NCBI GenBank assembly: GCA_040766895.1
Contig: JAXGPR010000002.1
Location: forward strand, 16,991-80,990
Reading direction: 5' to 3'
DNA: 64,000 bases
Source of the DNA: Anaerolineaceae bacterium
Lineage (GTDB): Bacteria; Chloroflexota; Anaerolineae; Anaerolineales; Anaerolineaceae
The number at the start of each line of letters is the position of its first letter. The first letter of the stretch is position 1. The notes under the pieces were generated by a model, which searched no databases, was not told the origin of the DNA, and saw only the letters and a list, made by a program, of their open reading frames with translations. Position numbers and translations under genes: made by a program. Below, piece after piece: positions 38,019-60,927 of the stretch.

Positions 38019-38035
38019 TTTTTAAGTAAATGCTG

Positions 38036-38117
38036 TGGGGAAAGAGAGGCTCGAACTCTCACGCGTTGCCGCACATGATCCTAAGTCATGCCTGTCTGCC
38101 AATTCCAGCATTTCCCC
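38036..38117 (-). tRNA. tRNA-Leu (anticodon UAG), long variable arm
   Basis: Reverse complement GGGGAAATGCTGGAATTGGCAGACAGGCATGACTTAGGATCATGTGCGGCAACGCGTGAGAGTTCGAGCCTCTCTTTCCCCA. Acceptor GGGGAAA/TTTCCCC and anticodon loop CTTAGGA. Confidence 0.9.
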
Positions 38118-38786: not shown

Positions 38787-38858
38787 GAGTTTATTTACGC
38801 AATTTTGACAGAAGCTATAATAGATTAAGAATCCTTTTTCCAAAAAAGCTGTTTGCTT

Positions 38859-39590
38859 ATGGCTGAACAAATACGCATCGGCACTTCGGGTTGGCTCTAT
38901 AAACATTGGCAGGGGATTTTTTATCCTGAGGATATTTCTCAAAAGCAGTGGTTTGCGTATTATGCGCGTTCTTTTGATACTGTAGAAATCAACAGCACTT
39001 TTTACCATCTCCACAACGCGAGCGTATTCGAGCACTGGCGGCAACAAGCTCCAGGTGGCTTCTTATATTCAATCAAAGCCAGCCGTATTATTACGCACAA
39101 CCAGCGGCTCGAAGGCTGCCAGGACACATTAGAAACCTTTTTAAGCCGCGCCAGCCTCCTGGGGGAGACCTTGGGTCCTGTCCTTTTCCAGCTGCCGCCT
39201 AGTTTCTCGCTTGATCTCAGTCGGTTCGAAAGCTTCTTGGCTCTCCTGCCCCAGGGGTTTTCGTACGCGATGGAGTTCCGCAACCCCACCTGGTTGACGG
39301 AAGAGGTCTTTGCGTTGTTGGAGCGCTTCGGCGTGGCGCTCTGCATTCACGATATGCCCCCGCTGCAGGTGCCGTTACGCATTACCGCTAAGTTCGTCTA
39401 TTTGCGCTTCCATGGCGACGTTGACCATACTGGTGATTATCCTCTCGAGACGCTCGCGCTCTGGGCAGAGCGGATGAAAGCCTGGCAGCGCCAGGGACTG
39501 GCGGTTTTTGCATACTTCAATAACGACACCGGCGGGATGGCAGTGCGTAATGCACTGACGATTAAGCAGCTCTTGGGGCAGGGCAGCTGA
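38859..39590 (+). CDS. DUF72-family protein
   Basis: IRIGTSGWLYKHWQGIFYP...YARSFDTVEINSTFY is the DUF72 N-terminal signature. Confidence 0.85.
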   Translation: MAEQIRIGTSGWLYKHWQGIFYPEDISQKQWFAYYARSFDTVEINSTFYHLHNASVFEHWRQQAPGGFLYSIKASRIITHNQRLEGCQDTLETFLSRASLLGETLGPVLFQLPPSFSLDLSRFESFLALLPQGFSYAMEFRNPTWLTEEVFALLERFGVALCIHDMPPLQVPLRITAKFVYLRFHGDVDHTGDYPLETLALWAERMKAWQRQGLAVFAYFNNDTGGMAVRNALTIKQLLGQGS

Positions 39591-39599
39591 CCAGAGCGT

Positions 39600-41837
39600 T
39601 CAAACTTCTAAAAGCGCCCTGTTCCAAGTATCCAGTGGCAGTTGAATGCCACCTTTGAGCGTCCATTCCAAGAGCACCTGCGGGTCAATACCAAAGGGCA
39701 GCAGCACACTCCCGCCGGCTTTAGCCAGCAATTCCAGATACTTGTGCTGATTCAGCTTGGCGGGGTCCACTTGCCCGCCTAATTCCCAAGCGTATACATC
39801 CGGCTCGCCCTGCATAAATAGGAAGCGCACACGCTGCCCCGGGCGGATCTGCATGCCGGCAGCTTGCAGCTGGCGTGCAGCGCGCACCGAAGCCGTGGCG
39901 CTCTTGTAAGCCTCCAAGGCGTAGCTAACCTTGCCATTCACCACCAACAGCTCCGGCGGCACCTGACCTTGCTTCAACTTCCTGACGGATTGTTCATACA
40001 CCTGAAAAGCTGCGTGCAAAGCCTCTGGCAATTCGGCGCGGGTTTTTGCCTGACCCAGGCAAGTGAGCATTTCGGTTTGCACCTGAGCGATCCAGCGTGG
40101 GGTATCCCGCCGGCGGGCTTCCAAGCCGCGCACTTTAATCTCGCCGCTCTGGAAGACGCCAAAATAGCGGTTGGGGATGGGCACACGTGGGTCGGTTTTG
40201 GAGGGCAAAAAAGCCACCCAGCGGTAAATGCCATCTAGGGCAATCGCCAGCCCAGTGCGGCTGGAAATCTTGTGCATCACGTCTTCGAAATGCTCTGGCT
40301 TGCTGCAACCCTTTTTCTTCAGCCAAAGGGCATCCACGTACATGTGCAGCACTTCGAAGCCTTCTTCCTCGGCGACTTCTTTAGCGCGCAGCAGCACCTC
40401 GCGCCCGCCTTTAGTAACTGCCTCGTGTGCTTCGATGCGCCCGTAACGCGCATTTTTGTAGCCCAAAAAACCAAAGCAAACCACCAGCAGCCATTTCAGC
40501 GCCGCGGAGCGCGCTTTTAACGTCTTTGCCATGGGATGGTCAGGTGGGTAAAAGCGGGTTTTGGTTTTGAGTGCCACGCGCTTCTCGTAGATGGGCTTGA
40601 GCGTCAGCGGGACCACGCCCAGCTCTTCGCTAGCTGGTGTGAGCACATCTGGCAGCGGCACTTCCGGAGAAATATTGCCATGAATGATGACTGCTGGGTA
40701 CATGGAGACGAAATCGATCTCAGCTACGTCGCTGTGCAGCCCCACTTTGGGCTGGTAGATCATCCCGCCGCGATCGGACTGAATCAGCTGCAAACCGCTT
40801 TTAAACTCTTCTACTTGGCGCTTTTGATAGGGCACCAGGATGTCTTTTTGCAGTGCGGTAATTACTTGCATAGCTGAGATGCCCTGACCAGGCGAAACGC
40901 GCGCCGCTTTTTCGATGGGCAGGGTGGTAACGCGCGCCATCTCTAACGTGCCGGCTAAGCTGTAATCGGACCACATCATCGCGGATTTGCGGTCAACGTG
41001 GCAGCGCCCGAAGAGGTGCGCTTCCTCCGGGCGGAAAATGATATGACCATACGAAAAATAGGTGATTTCTTTCTGCCAGCGCACCGGCCGGCTGAGGTCG
41101 CGGTTGAGCGCCAAGGGAATGCCTAACTGTTCTGATTGCCGTAGCAGGAAGGGCAGCAGCCAACTATCTCCCCAATCCGTTACCAAAATGTCTGGGTCAT
41201 AAGCTGCGAGGGCTGCATTGATCGCTTGCAGGTAATTGCCCTGCGCGTCCAGCGGCAGGCTCTGGCTAAAGCGGTCCGAGCGCAGGCTGAGCGCCTGCAC
41301 TGCGCTGTGGGTAGGGTCTACGTCGGGCGTAAGCTCCAGAATGCGCAAGGGTGGCAGCGCGGGCATCACATCCCAGCGGCTGTTGAGCGTCTCTAAGGAT
41401 TGGATGCGGTTCTGGCTGTCGGCTTCCAACTGGCACAGCGCCAAAGGAAAGGCGCCATAGCGCGCGATGTAACGCGTGCTAATGGTTACATCTGCGTCGT
41501 ACCAAATCAGGGTGGGGAATTGGTCTTCTAGCCGGTGGAAAAGCTCCACTTGGTGGGCAGGTGTATCCACGTCGATCGCTAGTACGTCAACCGGATCCGC
41601 TACAAAGACGTCTTGCTTTTGTTGGCGGGTGAGCTTGGTGACGGCTGGCTCTTTGCGCAGCGCCTTCCATAAGCGGCGCAGGTCATCGGAGGCGCCGGCA
41701 GCGTAAAACGTGACTGGAAAGCGCTGGGTGAAGCAGACACGGCTGTCATCACTTTCGGAGATAAACCACAGCGTCAAGCCGTCTTGCTGGTTGAGGTACA
41801 GGTCCAGCAGCCATCCGCGGAAGGTTGGGTTGCTCAT
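39600..41837 (-). CDS. Family-B DNA polymerase, exonuclease motifs degenerate, atypical motif C
   Basis: Motif A DFVSMYPAVI (40715-40686). Motif B-like KWLLVVCFGFLGYKNARYG. Motif C position YVDALW (40340-40323) instead of YGDTDS. KxY-region NRYFGV...IKVRGLEARRRDTPRW. The ExoI/II/III positions read LRILELT, TDWGDSWLLPFL and YSLAG, without the expected acidic residues. Confidence 0.85.
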   Translation of the reverse strand: MSNPTFRGWLLDLYLNQQDGLTLWFISESDDSRVCFTQRFPVTFYAAGASDDLRRLWKALRKEPAVTKLTRQQKQDVFVADPVDVLAIDVDTPAHQVELFHRLEDQFPTLIWYDADVTISTRYIARYGAFPLALCQLEADSQNRIQSLETLNSRWDVMPALPPLRILELTPDVDPTHSAVQALSLRSDRFSQSLPLDAQGNYLQAINAALAAYDPDILVTDWGDSWLLPFLLRQSEQLGIPLALNRDLSRPVRWQKEITYFSYGHIIFRPEEAHLFGRCHVDRKSAMMWSDYSLAGTLEMARVTTLPIEKAARVSPGQGISAMQVITALQKDILVPYQKRQVEEFKSGLQLIQSDRGGMIYQPKVGLHSDVAEIDFVSMYPAVIIHGNISPEVPLPDVLTPASEELGVVPLTLKPIYEKRVALKTKTRFYPPDHPMAKTLKARSAALKWLLVVCFGFLGYKNARYGRIEAHEAVTKGGREVLLRAKEVAEEEGFEVLHMYVDALWLKKKGCSKPEHFEDVMHKISSRTGLAIALDGIYRWVAFLPSKTDPRVPIPNRYFGVFQSGEIKVRGLEARRRDTPRWIAQVQTEMLTCLGQAKTRAELPEALHAAFQVYEQSVRKLKQGQVPPELLVVNGKVSYALEAYKSATASVRAARQLQAAGMQIRPGQRVRFLFMQGEPDVYAWELGGQVDPAKLNQHKYLELLAKAGGSVLLPFGIDPQVLLEWTLKGGIQLPLDTWNRALLEV

Positions 41838-42268
41838 GGCGCCTCTTCGAAAGCGGTGTAGGAGACAGAAACAGATAAATCTGCTGGCACAGCTTGCGGG
41901 CTTTCAGCTGCTAATTCAAGCGCCTCCTGCGGAGCGAAGTTTTCCAGCGTTTCATTGAGCAGCTGCAAAAAACGGGCTTCTTTGCCAGAATTAAGCTGCA
42001 CTTGTGGGTCAGTAGATGCCTCGGCTTGGGCAACCTGCCTTTGCAGAGCCTTGAGCTCTTTGTAGACCTCCAGCAGAATGGCGATCAGGTACATATCCAG
42101 CGGGTAAAGGTTGGAAGCGTAAGAAGCCTCTGCCAAATGCTGGCGGGAAAGCACCAGCAATTCCTCCAGCAAAAGTTGGTCATCTTTACGCAGAGCGCGT
42201 TCAAAGCGCTTGAGGGCAGCTTCTTCCTGCAGCCAGGTTTGGGTGATGGATGCAATTGTGCGGCCCAT
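41834..42268 (-). CDS. Hypothetical helical protein (144 aa), middle gene of the PolB operon
   Basis: SD AAAGGAG lies 6 nt upstream of its ATG. Its TGA overlaps the PolB ATG (ATGA, 41837-41834). No recognised domain. Confidence 0.55.
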   Translation of the reverse strand: MGRTIASITQTWLQEEAALKRFERALRKDDQLLLEELLVLSRQHLAEASYASNLYPLDMYLIAILLEVYKELKALQRQVAQAEASTDPQVQLNSGKEARFLQLLNETLENFAPQEALELAAESPQAVPADLSVSVSYTAFEEAP

Positions 42269-42307
42269 AAAAGCTCCTTTCTATTCTATCGATAAAGCGA
42301 TAAAGCG

Positions 42308-42883
42308 TTACATCATCGCAAATAGCGTCGGCTGCAAACCTTGCTCGGCAGGCAGCGCGGACGGCTCTTCCCAATGCATGTCCGAAGATGAGCGTAGCTG
42401 GTCTAAAAAGCCAGTGCGTGCGGCAGAAATCTGCGGTACAGGCTTAGCACTCACCACCACGGGGGCGCTCTGACCCAGCAGCCGTAGGCAAGTCAGACTG
42501 CGCGTGAGCAAGCGCTGACTGTCTTTCAGCTCCACATCTTCATCCAGGAAGGTAGCCAGCAAATCCAGCACAATCAGCGGTTCGTGGGGCGGCGCTGCAG
42601 CAACGGCTTCCAGCATGGCTAGCACCTGATAGCAGGTGAAAGCCCGCGAGAGGCGGATATTTGCCATTACAGCGGCTGGGTCGGAGGTGTAGGGGCGGAT
42701 GGTTTTAGCCACCGCATACATGTTCGAGCGGTTGCCGCAATCCAGAATGGTGGCGCGCTGCTTGAGCGCTAAGGCAGCCACAAGCTCCAACATTTTCTCT
42801 GTGAGCGCATGCTGCCCAATGACCACCAGCAAGCCGGCGGGTAAGGGGTCCTTAAAGGGAATTAAGCTGAAATCTGCGTCCAT
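42308..42883 (-). CDS. RecA-fold-like protein lacking a Walker A motif (ImuA/SulA-like pseudo-ATPase candidate)
   Basis: The beta-strand LLVVIG is followed by QHALTEKM where GxxGxGKT/S would be. Walker-B-like PLIVLDLLATF. 191 aa from the second ATG (42883); the first ATG (42889) abuts the -10 hexamer. Confidence 0.5.
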   Translation of the reverse strand: MDADFSLIPFKDPLPAGLLVVIGQHALTEKMLELVAALALKQRATILDCGNRSNMYAVAKTIRPYTSDPAAVMANIRLSRAFTCYQVLAMLEAVAAAPPHEPLIVLDLLATFLDEDVELKDSQRLLTRSLTCLRLLGQSAPVVVSAKPVPQISAARTGFLDQLRSSSDMHWEEPSALPAEQGLQPTLFAMM

Positions 42884-42889
42884 ATTCAT

Positions 42890-42917
42890 ATTATATAGAA
42901 TATTTGTTCTATGTCAA
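42890..42917 (-). promoter_or_regulatory. Consensus sigma70-type promoter of the PolB operon (TTGACA-16 nt-TATAAT)
   Basis: The minus strand reads cctcTTGACAtagaacaaatattctaTATAATatgaatATGgac. -35 at 42917-42912 and -10 at 42895-42890. The predicted TSS is about 42883, the A of the second ATG. Confidence 0.55.
42896..42911. promoter_or_regulatory. SOS-box-like 16-bp imperfect palindrome (proximal), filling the promoter spacer
   Basis: The minus strand reads TAGAACAAATATTCTA. Core GAAC-AAAT-ATTC has one mismatch to GAAC-N4-GTTC. Confidence 0.5.
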
Positions 42918-42924
42918 GAGGCTA

Positions 42925-42940
42925 TAGAACATCTGTACTA
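42925..42940. promoter_or_regulatory. SOS-box-like 16-bp imperfect palindrome (distal)
   Basis: The minus strand reads TAGTACAGATGTTCTA. Core GTAC-AGAT-GTTC has one mismatch to GAAC-N4-GTTC. It is 29 bp centre-to-centre from the proximal box. Confidence 0.45.
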
Positions 42941-43061
42941 TTTTACAGCTTGTTTTGTCTGGCTGCAGGGGAGGAGCGTGTGAACGTCACCGGAAAAAGC
43001 TGATCCGATTGGTTATAATAATGCGCGAAAAGAGAGACATTTTACAGGTAGATGCATAAAG

Positions 43062-43481
43062 ATGACAACGATTAAAGGTAACGAAAGTGGCACCACGCTG
43101 CGCAACCGATTGAGCAAATCGATCGTGCAGGCGCTCCGCCTGCTCATGCAAAAGCAAGAGCCGGACGCAGAAAGCCGCGACTTGGCAGCTTATATTGTCT
43201 TGGCATTGGAGAAAATTACCGAGTCTGTCGAAACTACCGCCAGCGCTTGGGAGAAACGCGATTACTGGCTGAAAGCCGATCGCTTCCGCCAAGAATGGGC
43301 TTGGTGTGAAGCCAGAAGCCAAGCTTTGGCAGAAGCATTGCGAGCGGATGACTGGGCTGGTGTAGCACAGGAATTAGCGTTCATTGGTCAAGCGCTGCGT
43401 GGGGTGGAGGTAAGCACTAATAACCGCATTGGGAAGCCTTGGGTTGGTGCATGGGAAAAGTTTTCAGAACGACTTGCGTAG
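43062..43481 (+). CDS. Hypothetical protein (139 aa), divergent from the PolB operon
   Basis: GC-rich ORF with coding-like composition. Predicted helical and Trp-rich (DYWLKADRFRQEWAWCEARSQAL). No recognised domain. Confidence 0.5.
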   Translation: MTTIKGNESGTTLRNRLSKSIVQALRLLMQKQEPDAESRDLAAYIVLALEKITESVETTASAWEKRDYWLKADRFRQEWAWCEARSQALAEALRADDWAGVAQELAFIGQALRGVEVSTNNRIGKPWVGAWEKFSERLA

Positions 43482-44019
43482 ATTTTGAATGGCATTTTGA
43501 CATTTGCTCAACCCTTACGGTACAGAAATAATGGGTGAGGCATAAAAACCGAATTTTGGTTTATGGTTATGATAAGTATCATTATCATAAGCATTTGATA
43601 TCGAGCAAAAGGCGGCTTCTTAGCGAAAATTGGGCTGCTCCAAAGAGGCTTATTCTAATAGTGGATTATTCGACCGTAAAAATGTGAAGTAACAATATGT
43701 AGTAGATGAGCAGCACCTTGTATGTGCTGAATGTTTTCTACACCAAGATAATTCTTTTCCTTGATTTATTAAACTTTGCAATTCAATGCTAACTAACCCC
43801 TTTTTATTCGTGAGGTACGTTTACATCTCTTTATGATCATGTTGAAAATTACTTGTCACTATAGGATAAGAATATCTGGACAAAGGTATAGTGACAGTAA
43901 ATCTAAACTTGCTATTAAAAGTATAAAAAACTATACGCAATACACACTAAATAATGGGGTTAATAATAATATCCTACAATTTATCGAAACCATTCAGAAA
44001 ATACGTTATAATTTTACCG

Positions 44020-44997
44020 ATGAATGATAACCTCACCATCCAACAAGTCATCGATCGTTATCTCAATTCTGTGCGCCTCTCACGCAGCGCCAATACTGCT
44101 CGCACGTATCGTAACGCGATGCACCTTTTTATTACGGTGCTAACAGTCCACCAGATCGACCCGGAGCAAGAGCCCATTACAAAATTGGGTGAAGAACCAG
44201 TTGTTTGGATGACCACGGCGCTTAAAGACTATTCCGCGCATACTGAGCAATGTTACCTCACAGCAATGGTAGGTTTCTATGAATACCTTGCTGGAGAAGA
44301 CTTGGCGCAAATCAACCTGCCACGGGTACGGCTGCTCATCAAACAGCGGGCACGTAAACCCGGGATTCGCTTACCACAATTCCCCAAATCAGATATTGAA
44401 ACTGTCCTTGAATATGCTGCTAATCTAAACCAGCAAGAAACCAGTAATGAAATTGAGCACTTGATAAACCTGCGAGATCGTGCTTTTCTGCTCACCTTAG
44501 CTGATACTGGCTTGCGTGTGCATGAGGCGTGCAACCTACGCCGTGGGGATATCGATTGGCACGAGAGCCGCGCTGTTATCATTGGCAAAGGCAATCGAGA
44601 AGCAGTTTTACGCTTTTCTCGGCGCAGCTTGAGAGCAATCAAGGATTATCTTTCAGCGCGGGCTGAAATGGATGGAAGCGGCTCTAAAGCCCTGAGTTCC
44701 CTACCTGTCTTCGCACGCCATGATCGCGCCAGTGGAAAAAAGGTCAAACCTATCTCCACAACCACCGGACGCGAAATTGTCAATCAACGGGTACGTGAGG
44801 CGCTTGGAGAAGAAGCCGTGGGTACCATTACTCCCCATTCTTTCCGGCATTATTTTGTGACTACTATTTTGCTCGTATCTGGTAATCTAAAACTCGCACA
44901 GGAACTCGCACGGCACCAAAATATCGCAGTAACGCAACGCTATAGCCACCTGAGCGATGAGGAACTTGACCGTAAGTACATGGAAATCTTTGATTAA
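44020..44997 (+). CDS. Tyrosine recombinase/integrase (XerC/XerD-like)
   Basis: N-terminal SAM-like core-binding domain. Catalytic set: R (LADTGLRVHEA), K (GKGNRE), HxxR (PHSFRHYF), H (LARHQN), Y (TQRYSH). Confidence 0.85.
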   Translation: MNDNLTIQQVIDRYLNSVRLSRSANTARTYRNAMHLFITVLTVHQIDPEQEPITKLGEEPVVWMTTALKDYSAHTEQCYLTAMVGFYEYLAGEDLAQINLPRVRLLIKQRARKPGIRLPQFPKSDIETVLEYAANLNQQETSNEIEHLINLRDRAFLLTLADTGLRVHEACNLRRGDIDWHESRAVIIGKGNREAVLRFSRRSLRAIKDYLSARAEMDGSGSKALSSLPVFARHDRASGKKVKPISTTTGREIVNQRVREALGEEAVGTITPHSFRHYFVTTILLVSGNLKLAQELARHQNIAVTQRYSHLSDEELDRKYMEIFD

Positions 44998-60177: not shown

Positions 60178-60927
60178 CTATTCTACTTCCTTGGTCAAAC
60201 GGCGGTATTCGCAATATTCGCAATCCGGATTTGCCTCAGGGATAGTGTCGCTTTCCAAAATCGCTTTCATGTCCATCAGAGTGGGACTAACCCAAGAATC
60301 GTCCCCCTGATGAGTGAGAATCGTTAGCTCGAACTCAAGCTTGTTATCGAAAAGCTTGCGGTCCTTCAAAGCATTTGCAAAAACAAAATACCCCACTGGG
60401 GAGACCTTAAAGCCCATTTTCCTAAAAATCCATTGGTAAACTTCCATTTGACGCTTGTAGGACTGTTTAAATTCATCGTCTAAACTAATTTCACTGGCAG
60501 TGGAAGTGGCTTTGTAGTCTACTATGTTCAATTCTCCTTGGGGTGTGATCCAAACATCATCAATAATTCCCTGAACCTGAAAACCCGTTTGTTCATCCAC
60601 AACGGAAGCCCCCACATAATGGTAGACATCATCTCGCCAAAACGGCAAATCGGGATGAGAAAAAGGGACGGCATCAATGCCATATTGAACCATAATTGGG
60701 TGAGGTAGTCGTAGTTTTCGATAATAGTCAAATTCCTGCTTCAGAAGGTAATCAACTGCAGAATTGAGAGGCCAGCCTGGCATGGAAGGCTGAGCCAATC
60801 CAAGCTTCCTATCGAGATAAAAACAACGCGGACAGTTAATAAACAGGTCTATCTTAGATCGTGAGATTGCATAAGTATCGGAATTGTTTTCGTAGAGATT
60901 GCGCTTGCGCTGTTTATACTTGGTCAT
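60178..60927 (-). CDS. PD-(D/E)XK nuclease-family protein with CxxC...CxxC
   Basis: Nuclease core GIIDDVW...LNIVDYKA (D...D/E-x-K). Cys pairs NCPRCF (N-terminal) and DCEYCEY (C-terminal), reminiscent of Cas4/AddB-type cluster ligands. Confidence 0.65.
   Translation of the reverse strand: MTKYKQRKRNLYENNSDTYAISRSKIDLFINCPRCFYLDRKLGLAQPSMPGWPLNSAVDYLLKQEFDYYRKLRLPHPIMVQYGIDAVPFSHPDLPFWRDDVYHYVGASVVDEQTGFQVQGIIDDVWITPQGELNIVDYKATSTASEISLDDEFKQSYKRQMEVYQWIFRKMGFKVSPVGYFVFANALKDRKLFDNKLEFELTILTHQGDDSWVSPTLMDMKAILESDTIPEANPDCEYCEYRRLTKEVE

Follow-up and report, generated by a model that had tools for sequence, protein, structure and literature searches.

A PolB2 (G2) family B DNA polymerase without a proofreading site, encoded behind a LexA-type operator in an Anaerolineaceae bacterium and very probably the catalytic subunit of a bacterial mutasome

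The DNA examined here (hereafter the window) is a stretch of 64,000 nucleotides from an Anaerolineaceae bacterium of the Chloroflexota (assembly GCA_040766895.1, contig JAXGPR010000002.1, positions 16,991 to 80,990 of the forward strand). It carries a gene for a family B DNA polymerase, polB2, as the last of three co-oriented genes that lie downstream of a promoter accompanied by LexA-type operators. The components of the locus, in window coordinates, are as follows.

39600..41837, reverse strand: polB2, an ATG-to-stop open reading frame of 745 amino acids, assigned as catalytic subunit to the PolB2/G2 group
41834..42268, reverse strand: ppb2, 144 amino acids, an accessory protein of the PPB2/DUF8156 family, predicted to be helical, beginning MGRTIASIT, with a stop codon that overlaps the polB2 start (ATGA)
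42308..42889, reverse strand: iradA, an inactivated RadA/Rad51-like protein of 191 or 193 amino acids, identified from an AlphaFold2 (AF2) model, a Foldseek search, and a weak RadA profile match
42890..42917, reverse strand: promoter TTGACA (42917-42912), 16 nucleotides, TATAAT (42895-42890), matching the consensus at 12 of 12 positions and conserved in 36 loci
42897..42910, reverse strand: LexA-type operator 1, AGAACAAATATTCT, GAAC-N4-GTTC class with one mismatch, filling the spacer between -35 and -10
42926..42939, reverse strand: LexA-type operator 2, AGTACAGATGTTCT, upstream of the -35 hexamer, facing the divergent gene orf139 and present in the closest clade only

The polB2 gene is a real open reading frame under strong purifying selection and encodes a family B DNA polymerase. 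More than 3200 homologues, together with pairwise ratios of nonsynonymous to synonymous substitution of 0.06-0.15 against orthologues (polB2, ppb2, and iradA being alike in this respect), exclude a chance reading frame and mark polB2 as a genuine, selected gene. The product matches DNA_pol_B (PF00136) in Pfam at 5.5e-23, and its best NCBIfam model is NF004416 ('type B DNA-directed DNA polymerase'), reached with 375 bits, below the 516-bit cut-off. The solved structures that match best in sequence are archaeal PolB enzymes from Pyrococcus and Thermococcus (~1e-38), and E. coli Pol II matches at 1.6e-9 over the palm only. An AF2 model built on 76 relatives reached a mean predicted local distance difference test score (pLDDT) of 94.1 and a predicted template-modelling score of 0.91, and each of its top Foldseek neighbours is an archaeal family B polymerase, with identities of 18-21%. 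Relatives reach into the Thermoplasmatota and the Bathyarchaeia/Nitrososphaerota. Ranked by similarity among PolB2, PolB3, and Pol II representatives, the window protein is closest to an archaeal PolB2 of Bathyarchaeia type with a DUF8156 neighbour (P0262; 31% identity, 3e-106, over residues 7-712), followed by PolB3 structures (19-21% identity, 1e-38) and Pol II (~1e-9), an order in keeping with a probable position inside archaeal PolB2 and apart from PolB1, PolB3, and Pol II. A scan of reference genomes recovered 42 loci, all of them in Anaerolineaceae, the closest being in a metagenome-assembled genome of Candidatus Mesolinea with 98% identity. The best explanation of these affinities is a B-family polymerase of archaeal origin that keeps its DnaQ-like domain only as a structural remnant.

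The polymerase motifs and the motif specific to PolB2 lie at the following positions, with residue numbers of the protein in parentheses.

40686..40715, reverse strand: motif A, DFVSMYPAVI (375-384), in which Asp375 is catalytic and Tyr380 the steric gate, aligned with Pyrococcus DFRSLYPSII
40440..40514, reverse strand: motif B region, ARSAALKWLLVVCFGFLGYKNARYG (442-466), in which R443 and K448 are kept
40323..40352, reverse strand: motif C, VLHMYVDALW (496-505), with His498, Tyr500, and catalytic Asp502, aligned with Pyrococcus VLYIDTDGLY
40155..40172, reverse strand: NRYFGV (556-561), a KxY motif with Lys replaced by Asn556, aligned with Pyrococcus KKYALI
40986..41009, reverse strand: GRCHVDRK (277-284), carrying the PolB2-specific D(K/R) motif D282-R283, located by alignment

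Motifs A and B and the KxY/RRD region, which the first-pass annotation of this DNA had called recognisable, do align column for column with Pyrococcus PolB. The KxY region extends over residues 556-582 (NRYFGV...KVRGLEARRRD), and the stretch NRYFGV...KVRGLEARRRDTPRW was aligned in this way. Conservation was assessed in an alignment of 76 relatives with 29-82% identity (A1), to which all residue counts below refer. Asp375 and Asp502, the two residues named in the first-pass annotation, are invariant (76/76 each), Lys448 is present in 75 sequences, Tyr380 in 71, His498 in 68, and Asn556 in 63, and the GG and NxSxE elements vary little or not at all across the bacteria and archaea included. The annotation had also read motif C as retaining a single Asp, and this is borne out: Asp502 is kept, and the first Asp of the DxD is replaced by Tyr500 in the window protein and by I, Y, or L among relatives. 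Within motif B, whose core KWLLVVCFGFLGYKNARYG (448-466) is aligned by HMMER with Pyrococcus KILANSYYGYYGYAKARWY, the N, S, and Y of KxxxNSxYG have become V, C, and F; across the family, these three positions read V/T, C/S, and F. Judged from the alignments, the polymerase centre keeps both predicted metal-binding aspartates (D375 and D502) and the predicted triphosphate-binding residues R443 and K448. In canonical PolBs, the N, S, and Y of motif B and the Lys of KxY contact the nascent base pair and the minor groove at the primer terminus; speculatively, the substitutions at these positions may relax the checking of the terminus and may be related to mismatch extension. The D(K/R) motif lies in the loop after the GRxH strand, where G277, R278, and the nearby Y263 are invariant, D282 occurs in 72/76 relatives, and the next two positions are mostly R or K. 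The SYFSYG-type segment that precedes it (259-264) corresponds to a beta-alpha element predicted to bind iRadA (PMC11791011). Eight distant relatives (P0178, P0193, P0198, P0203, P0208, P0223, P0257, and P0263) are 1240-1310 amino acids long and align with PolB2 in two segments, with the interruption at residue 454/455 within motif B, a pattern expected of a putative intein in that motif.

The exonuclease domain is a degenerate remnant, in which four segments bear on the former ExoI to ExoIII motifs.

41385..41399, reverse strand: SLETL (147-151), most likely the ExoI remnant, with the Asp replaced by Ser147 and Glu149 kept (HMMER alignments, strand order in the model, and column composition)
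41322..41348, reverse strand: LRILELTPD (164-172), which more probably forms the second strand of the degenerate exonuclease fold (HMMER alignments and model)
41145..41180, reverse strand: ExoII remnant, TDWGDSWLLPFL (220-231), aligned with Pyrococcus TYNGDSFDLPYL
40950..40964, reverse strand: YSLAG (292-296), inside helix 289-304 and not a homologue of ExoIII (alignment break and AF2 secondary structure)

The claim that ExoII has lost its catalytic Asp stands, as the aligned position is occupied by Leu227 and by L, I, or V in 70/76 relatives. The placement of the other two motifs has to be revised. ExoI had been assigned to LRILELT (164-170), which HMMER aligns to the next strand, IIMISYA, whereas DIETL is aligned with S147-L-E-T-L in the strand RIQSLETL (144-151), and the order of strands ahead of helix 201-213 in the AF2 model fits the SLETL register. 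On the HMMER alignments and the strand order of the model, SLETL is the more likely site of ExoI. A D-x-E pattern is conserved in neither register among the 76 relatives, with acidic residues at position 147 in 10, at position 149 in 19, at position 170 in 18, and at position 172 in 41 of them. For ExoIII, which had been read as YSLAG, both single-sequence and profile alignments to PolB break between query residues ~258 and 298, an interval that spans ~85 residues in Pyrococcus and ~40 in the PolB2 family (a shortfall of ~45 residues) and that contains a single long helix, 289-304, in the AF2 model. Because the alignments break there and only this helix occupies the interval, the ExoIII segment is missing rather than substituted, in agreement with the published description of B2/G2 (PMC7544198). 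In the shifted register, Glu149 survives in the window protein, and the LRILELT register contains no D-x-E either. Alignments and model indicate that a DEDD exonuclease site cannot form, with at most one of its four carboxylates left, and on this point the first-pass annotation stands.

The two genes upstream of polB2 encode its likely partners. The order iRadA-PPB2-PolB2, with all three genes co-oriented, is kept in every locus with upstream DNA, and an AAGGAG ribosome-binding site precedes the polB2 start; co-transcription and translational coupling of polB2 with iradA and ppb2 is the best explanation of this arrangement. The PPB2 N-terminus, MGRTIASITQTW, is invariant among loci apart from minor variants (MSRT in L010 and MGRTISSSTKTW in L038). 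PPB2 aligns with archaeal PPB2 from their MGR(T/N) starts (BLASTP, 1e-4), and its homologues carry PF26485 in precomputed annotations, a family named DUF8156 on the gene adjoining an archaeal PolB2; neither PPB2 nor orf139 matched a family in the Pfam and NCBIfam libraries scanned. Single-sequence phmmer searches of the PDB with iRadA, PPB2, and orf139 returned nothing meaningful. The AF2 model of iRadA (pLDDT 88) has only RadA, Rad51, DMC1, or Rad51 paralogues among its top 50 Foldseek matches, at template-modelling scores of ~0.6, and the weak RadA profile matches align DP..vl.nI.lsRAF and the Walker B strand. A Walker A motif (GxxxxGK[ST]) was not found in iRadA, where the position reads G25-Q-H-A-L-T-E-K (GQHALTEK). 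At only 193 amino acids, the protein agrees with a RadA/Rad51 ATPase core that has lost the N-terminal domain.

Short elements of the type that binds the beta sliding clamp were recognised by conservation at two C-termini.

42320..42334, reverse strand: QPTLF (186-190) at the C-terminus of iRadA, a motif of beta-clamp-binding type
39630..39647, reverse strand: IQLPLD (731-736) at the C-terminus of PolB2, with a QLxL element like a beta-clamp motif and a predicted function of that kind

iRadA ends in ...LQPTLFAMM, where Q186 and L189 are the same in all 23 homologues compared, and a C-terminal QxxLF is present in 36/36 loci that contain the iRadA gene. The [IL]QLxL at the PolB2 C-terminus is kept in nearly all Anaerolineaceae orthologues, and together the two elements suggest that both clamp pockets might be used. 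The published mutasome analysis reports that clamp motifs hardly ever occur on iRadA and PolB2 at once. Among the PolB2 C-termini examined (L015, L018, L021, L023, L024, L034, and L037), one clade ends in IQLKLNQALFE, that is, in two motifs in tandem.

The perfect sigma-70 promoter lies within a 172-bp region upstream of iradA, and its architecture, CTTGACA-(T)AGAAC-N4-GTTCTATATAAT, is kept in 36 loci with fixed arms and a free N4 centre. A perfect GAAC-N4-GTTC, which is the LexA consensus of Bacillus subtilis (PMC4234289), occurs in 22 of these 36. Across 507 kb of loci and the window, the operator 14-mer is almost confined to the iradA promoter. Operator 2 lies 30 bp upstream of operator 1. 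LexA binding at the operator is predicted from the sequence. A conserved iradA ATG follows the -10 hexamer by 6 nucleotides, from which a leaderless mRNA is deduced; since the first ATG (42889) abuts the -10 hexamer in the window, the second (42883) is the likely start, giving a product of 191 amino acids.

The enzyme class to which the window protein belongs is already described. Rogozin et al. in 2008 (PMC2527604) recognised an 'inactivated' archaeal family that also has a minor branch in bacteria and put forward a scaffold hypothesis, and Kazlauskas et al. in 2020 (PMC7544198) distinguished an archaeal B2 group and a bacterial G2 group nested within it, defined by an ExoI that is not conserved, a missing ExoIII, a motif C with one Asp and a conserved His, and D(K/R); all four defining features are present in the window PolB2. 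Loss of proofreading and the one-Asp motif C were thus reported in 2008 and 2020, and the mutasome was modelled in 2025 with Anaerolineae included. In that last study, Timinskas et al. (PMC11791011) found only the order iRadA-PPB2-PolB2 in bacteria, an N-terminal 'MGRT' arm on PPB2, an iRadA reduced to the RadA core, with neither the N-terminal domain nor the ATPase site, beta-clamp motifs mainly on iRadA, and an enrichment of lexA, SRAP, and DUF72 genes near bacterial PolB2 operons. The supplementary tables contain many Anaerolineae operons, YVD variants of motif C, and models of Anaerolineae iRadA and PolB2 with the beta clamp, and a 1:1:3 complex of PolB2, iRadA, and PPB2 has been published as an AlphaFold model for Anaerolineaceae relatives. 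A 2026 survey in Nucleic Acids Research (PMC12926913) counts G2/PolB2 among the bacterial polymerases whose proofreading is inactivated. The window operon shares with the published mutasome motif C, D(K/R), the loss of ExoIII, gene order, the MGRT arm, a P-loop-less RadA fold, the clamp motif of iRadA, and a DUF72 neighbour, and no group-defining difference separates them. The main text of PMC11791011 makes no mention of a LexA-type operator in the promoter spacer with a leaderless start, of a QLxL on PolB2 beside the QxxLF of iRadA, or of an operon richer in GC than its host.

The archaeal counterparts supply the biochemistry. Purified Sulfolobus Dpo2 is a robust polymerase without 3'-5' exonuclease activity (PMC8764526; Feng et al. 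2020, 2022, PMC7390963) that is efficient at extending mismatched or lesion-paired ends and is induced by damage (PMC7390963, PMC8764526); on undamaged DNA, it is accurate, acting as an extender and not an inserter (PMC8764526), and damage-inducible Dpo2 underlies targeted mutagenesis (as summarised in PMC7544198). The 'altered catalysis' of the first-pass annotation should therefore not be taken as low fidelity, given the analogy with Dpo2. The Dpo2 of Sulfolobus islandicus and S. solfataricus belongs to the same family with the same accessory genes, is exonuclease-dead, and has lost the first Asp of motif C, as has the window PolB2; the expected identity is ~30%, motif C is IID in Sulfolobus but YVD in the window, and the Sulfolobus system has PCNA motifs and Orc1/Cdc6-type regulation where the window operon has beta-clamp motifs and a LexA-type box. 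More remote parallels exist in SOS-controlled, multi-subunit, error-tolerant polymerases that involve a RecA-family protein and the beta clamp, as is predicted for the window system, namely E. coli Pol V (UmuD'2C-RecA) and ImuA-ImuB-DnaE2. Their catalytic subunits, however, belong to the Y family (UmuC) or the C family (DnaE2) and not to family B, their accessory proteins are unrelated to PPB2, and the RecA of Pol V is an active recombinase. Within family B, E. coli Pol II and eukaryotic Pol zeta (Rev3) are damage-induced and have an 'extender' role, as is predicted for the window PolB2. Pol zeta, like the window system, combines a dead exonuclease domain with a multi-subunit organisation, although its subunits are unrelated, whereas E. 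coli Pol II works as one subunit, keeps its exonuclease active, and matches the window PolB2 at 1e-9. A bacterial PolB of the E. coli Pol II type was accordingly rejected as an identification, as the exonuclease and DxD residues are absent and the match is weak.

Taken together, polB2 very probably encodes the catalytic subunit of a bacterial PolB2 (G2) mutasome placed behind an SOS-type (LexA-type) operator, a known kind of damage-tolerance enzyme. The non-proofreading, translesion-type polymerase proposed in the first-pass annotation is thereby supported by membership in PolB2/G2, by homology, and by context. In undamaged cells, LexA bound to the GAAC-N4-GTTC operator in the spacer would block the sigma-70 promoter, and DNA damage would lift this repression and allow a leaderless iradA-ppb2-polB2 mRNA to be made. 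PolB2, iRadA, and PPB2 would then assemble, presumably in the 1:1:3 ratio modelled for relatives, with the MGRT arm of PPB2 predicted to reach between PolB2 and iRadA. The complex could dock on the beta sliding clamp through the QPTLF of iRadA and possibly also through the QLPLD of PolB2, and PolB2 would extend mismatched or lesion-paired primer ends without excising them, providing damage tolerance at the price of mutations. A more specific form of this proposal, in which the Anaerolineaceae mutasome is a directly LexA-repressed, leaderless SOS operon whose product holds the beta-clamp dimer at both pockets by means of the iRadA QxxLF and the PolB2 QLxL(+QxLF), is put forward tentatively, as a possibility with somewhat less than an even chance.

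Several points count against the mutasome interpretation. The non-canonical N, S, and Y positions of motif B and the Lys-to-Asn change in KxY may mean strongly reduced activity. Operator 1 in the window carries ATTC in place of GTTC, and no lexA was found among the ~40 window open reading frames scanned with Pfam, which include all those of 170-270 amino acids. The putative assignment of the operator to the LexA of this organism draws on the Gram-positive box that Chloroflexi LexA reportedly uses. Finally, none of the papers found describes a purified or genetically tested bacterial PolB2, and the activity of the window protein is consequently extrapolated from Sulfolobus enzymes at ~30% identity.

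The surroundings of the operon bear on its origin, and the relevant neighbours are as follows.

38035..38117, reverse strand: tRNA-Leu(tag)
38853..39590, forward strand: DUF72 gene (PF01904, 5e-70), convergent with polB2 across a 9-bp gap
43062..43481, forward strand: orf139, 139 amino acids, divergent from the operator region and conserved in ~20 Anaerolineaceae loci
43954..44997: tyrosine recombinase, Xer-like, with XerC and XerD as the best models, both below cut-offs

DUF72 is a TIM-barrel family related to UV-damage endonuclease and reported to be enriched beside PolB2 operons (enrichment: PMC11791011); a DUF72 neighbour is found only in Mesolinea-like loci. The gene orf139, without a match in Pfam, NCBIfam, or the PDB, could be co-regulated through operator 2 (42926-42939). 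The segment 39000-43500, comprising DUF72, polB2, ppb2, iradA, and orf139, has a GC content of 53-57% and a third-codon-position GC content (GC3) of 0.54-0.68, compared with 44-47% and 0.40-0.48 in the flanks, and polB2 lies 4-13 GC points above its flanks in nearly all orthologous loci (L001-L041), L038 being excepted. Where the flanks are captured, the recombinase, orf139, and the operon occur together in ~20 loci, and the operon, tRNA-Leu, and trigger factor in ~30 (with the tRNA checked in 10), a synteny that persists down to 54% iRadA identity. Downstream of the operon come tRNA-Leu(tag) and then trigger factor and ClpP in all loci checked (L001, L004, L006, L011, L014, L015, L020, L024, L034, and L035). 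Because the same chromosomal neighbourhood recurs across loci, the GC-rich block is judged old and vertically inherited within Anaerolineaceae, and recent transfer does not explain it. The spacing from polB2 to the tRNA is variable, from ~0.1 to 3 kb, and is occupied in the Mesolinea clade by DUF72 and a DUF420 membrane protein. A very AT-rich stretch (43501-44000, GC 0.28-0.37) lies ahead of the recombinase, which keeps its synteny with the operon in roughly half of the loci.

Three other explanations have to be weighed against a damage-tolerance mutasome. The oldest, which goes back to the 2008 hypothesis (PMC2527604) and which the first-pass annotation kept as an alternative, holds that catalysis has been lost and that PolB2 is only a structural partner of replication or repair proteins. 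The loss of the first Asp of motif C to Tyr500, the changed N, S, and Y of motif B and Lys of KxY, and the missing exonuclease site would all agree with an inactive scaffold, and purifying selection would fit it too. A pure scaffold, however, would have no need of D375, D502, K448, GG, and NxSxE, which bacteria and archaea keep with few or no exceptions, and since archaeal Dpo2 proved to be a robust polymerase, the hypothesis has been abandoned for archaeal PolB2; for the window protein, it is accordingly disfavoured and seems improbable. A second possibility, that the polymerase retains a defective proofreading domain in a replicative or gap-filling role outside the SOS response, with the promoter palindrome binding another regulator or being a mere spacer feature, could draw on the lack of lexA among the window reading frames scanned, on LexA binding being a prediction only, and on the high fidelity of Dpo2 on undamaged DNA. 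Yet the arms of the palindrome are the exact Gram-positive LexA consensus in 22 loci while the 4-nucleotide centre varies freely, lexA is enriched beside bacterial PolB2 operons elsewhere (PMC11791011), and archaeal PolB2 operons are damage-induced, so that a non-SOS role is very unlikely.

An integrated mobile element or genomic island with its own replicative B-family enzyme would account for the GC-rich block at ~39000-43500, the tyrosine recombinase at 43954-44997, and the tRNA-Leu at 38035-38117, and the PolB2 family is thought to have reached bacteria by horizontal transfer. Nevertheless, the neighbourhood with tRNA-Leu, trigger factor, and ClpP is conserved across the family, the tRNA has its 3' end facing away from the block, and no att-like direct repeats bracketing the block were found. 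The recombinase scores best against the XerC and XerD models, terminal-protein, capsid, and casposase-type genes are absent, and the LexA box and accessory proteins suit repair and not the replication of an element. A mobile element or island was therefore rejected on conserved synteny, tRNA orientation, and the lack of att repeats, leaving it only a very small probability, and a protein-primed or primer-independent PolB of the mobile-element type was rejected as well, given the absent exonuclease site, the conserved synteny, and the lack of flanking repeats.

That a translesion-type B-family polymerase can be picked out by careful reading of raw sequence is one implication of these results. 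If the LexA-repressed, two-pocket form of the mutasome proposal were true, the operon would represent a B-family counterpart of Pol V/ImuABC in a phylum where SOS mutagenesis is unstudied, and its GC richness would reflect a regime of mutation or expression peculiar to a locus that is normally silent. With its consensus promoter and embedded LexA-type operator, leaderless first gene, and strictly conserved interaction motifs, the Anaerolineaceae operon offers a clean system that could test whether SOS mutagenesis in bacteria really draws on a B-family mutasome of archaeal descent.

Elsewhere, the window consists of ordinary chromosomal DNA, with genes for SMC, ScpA, RNase III, FtsZ, FtsY, RelA/SpoT, NusB, and EF-P. 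It also contains, at 60178..60927 on the reverse strand, a PD-(D/E)XK nuclease with weak Cas4-like similarity that is unrelated to polB2.

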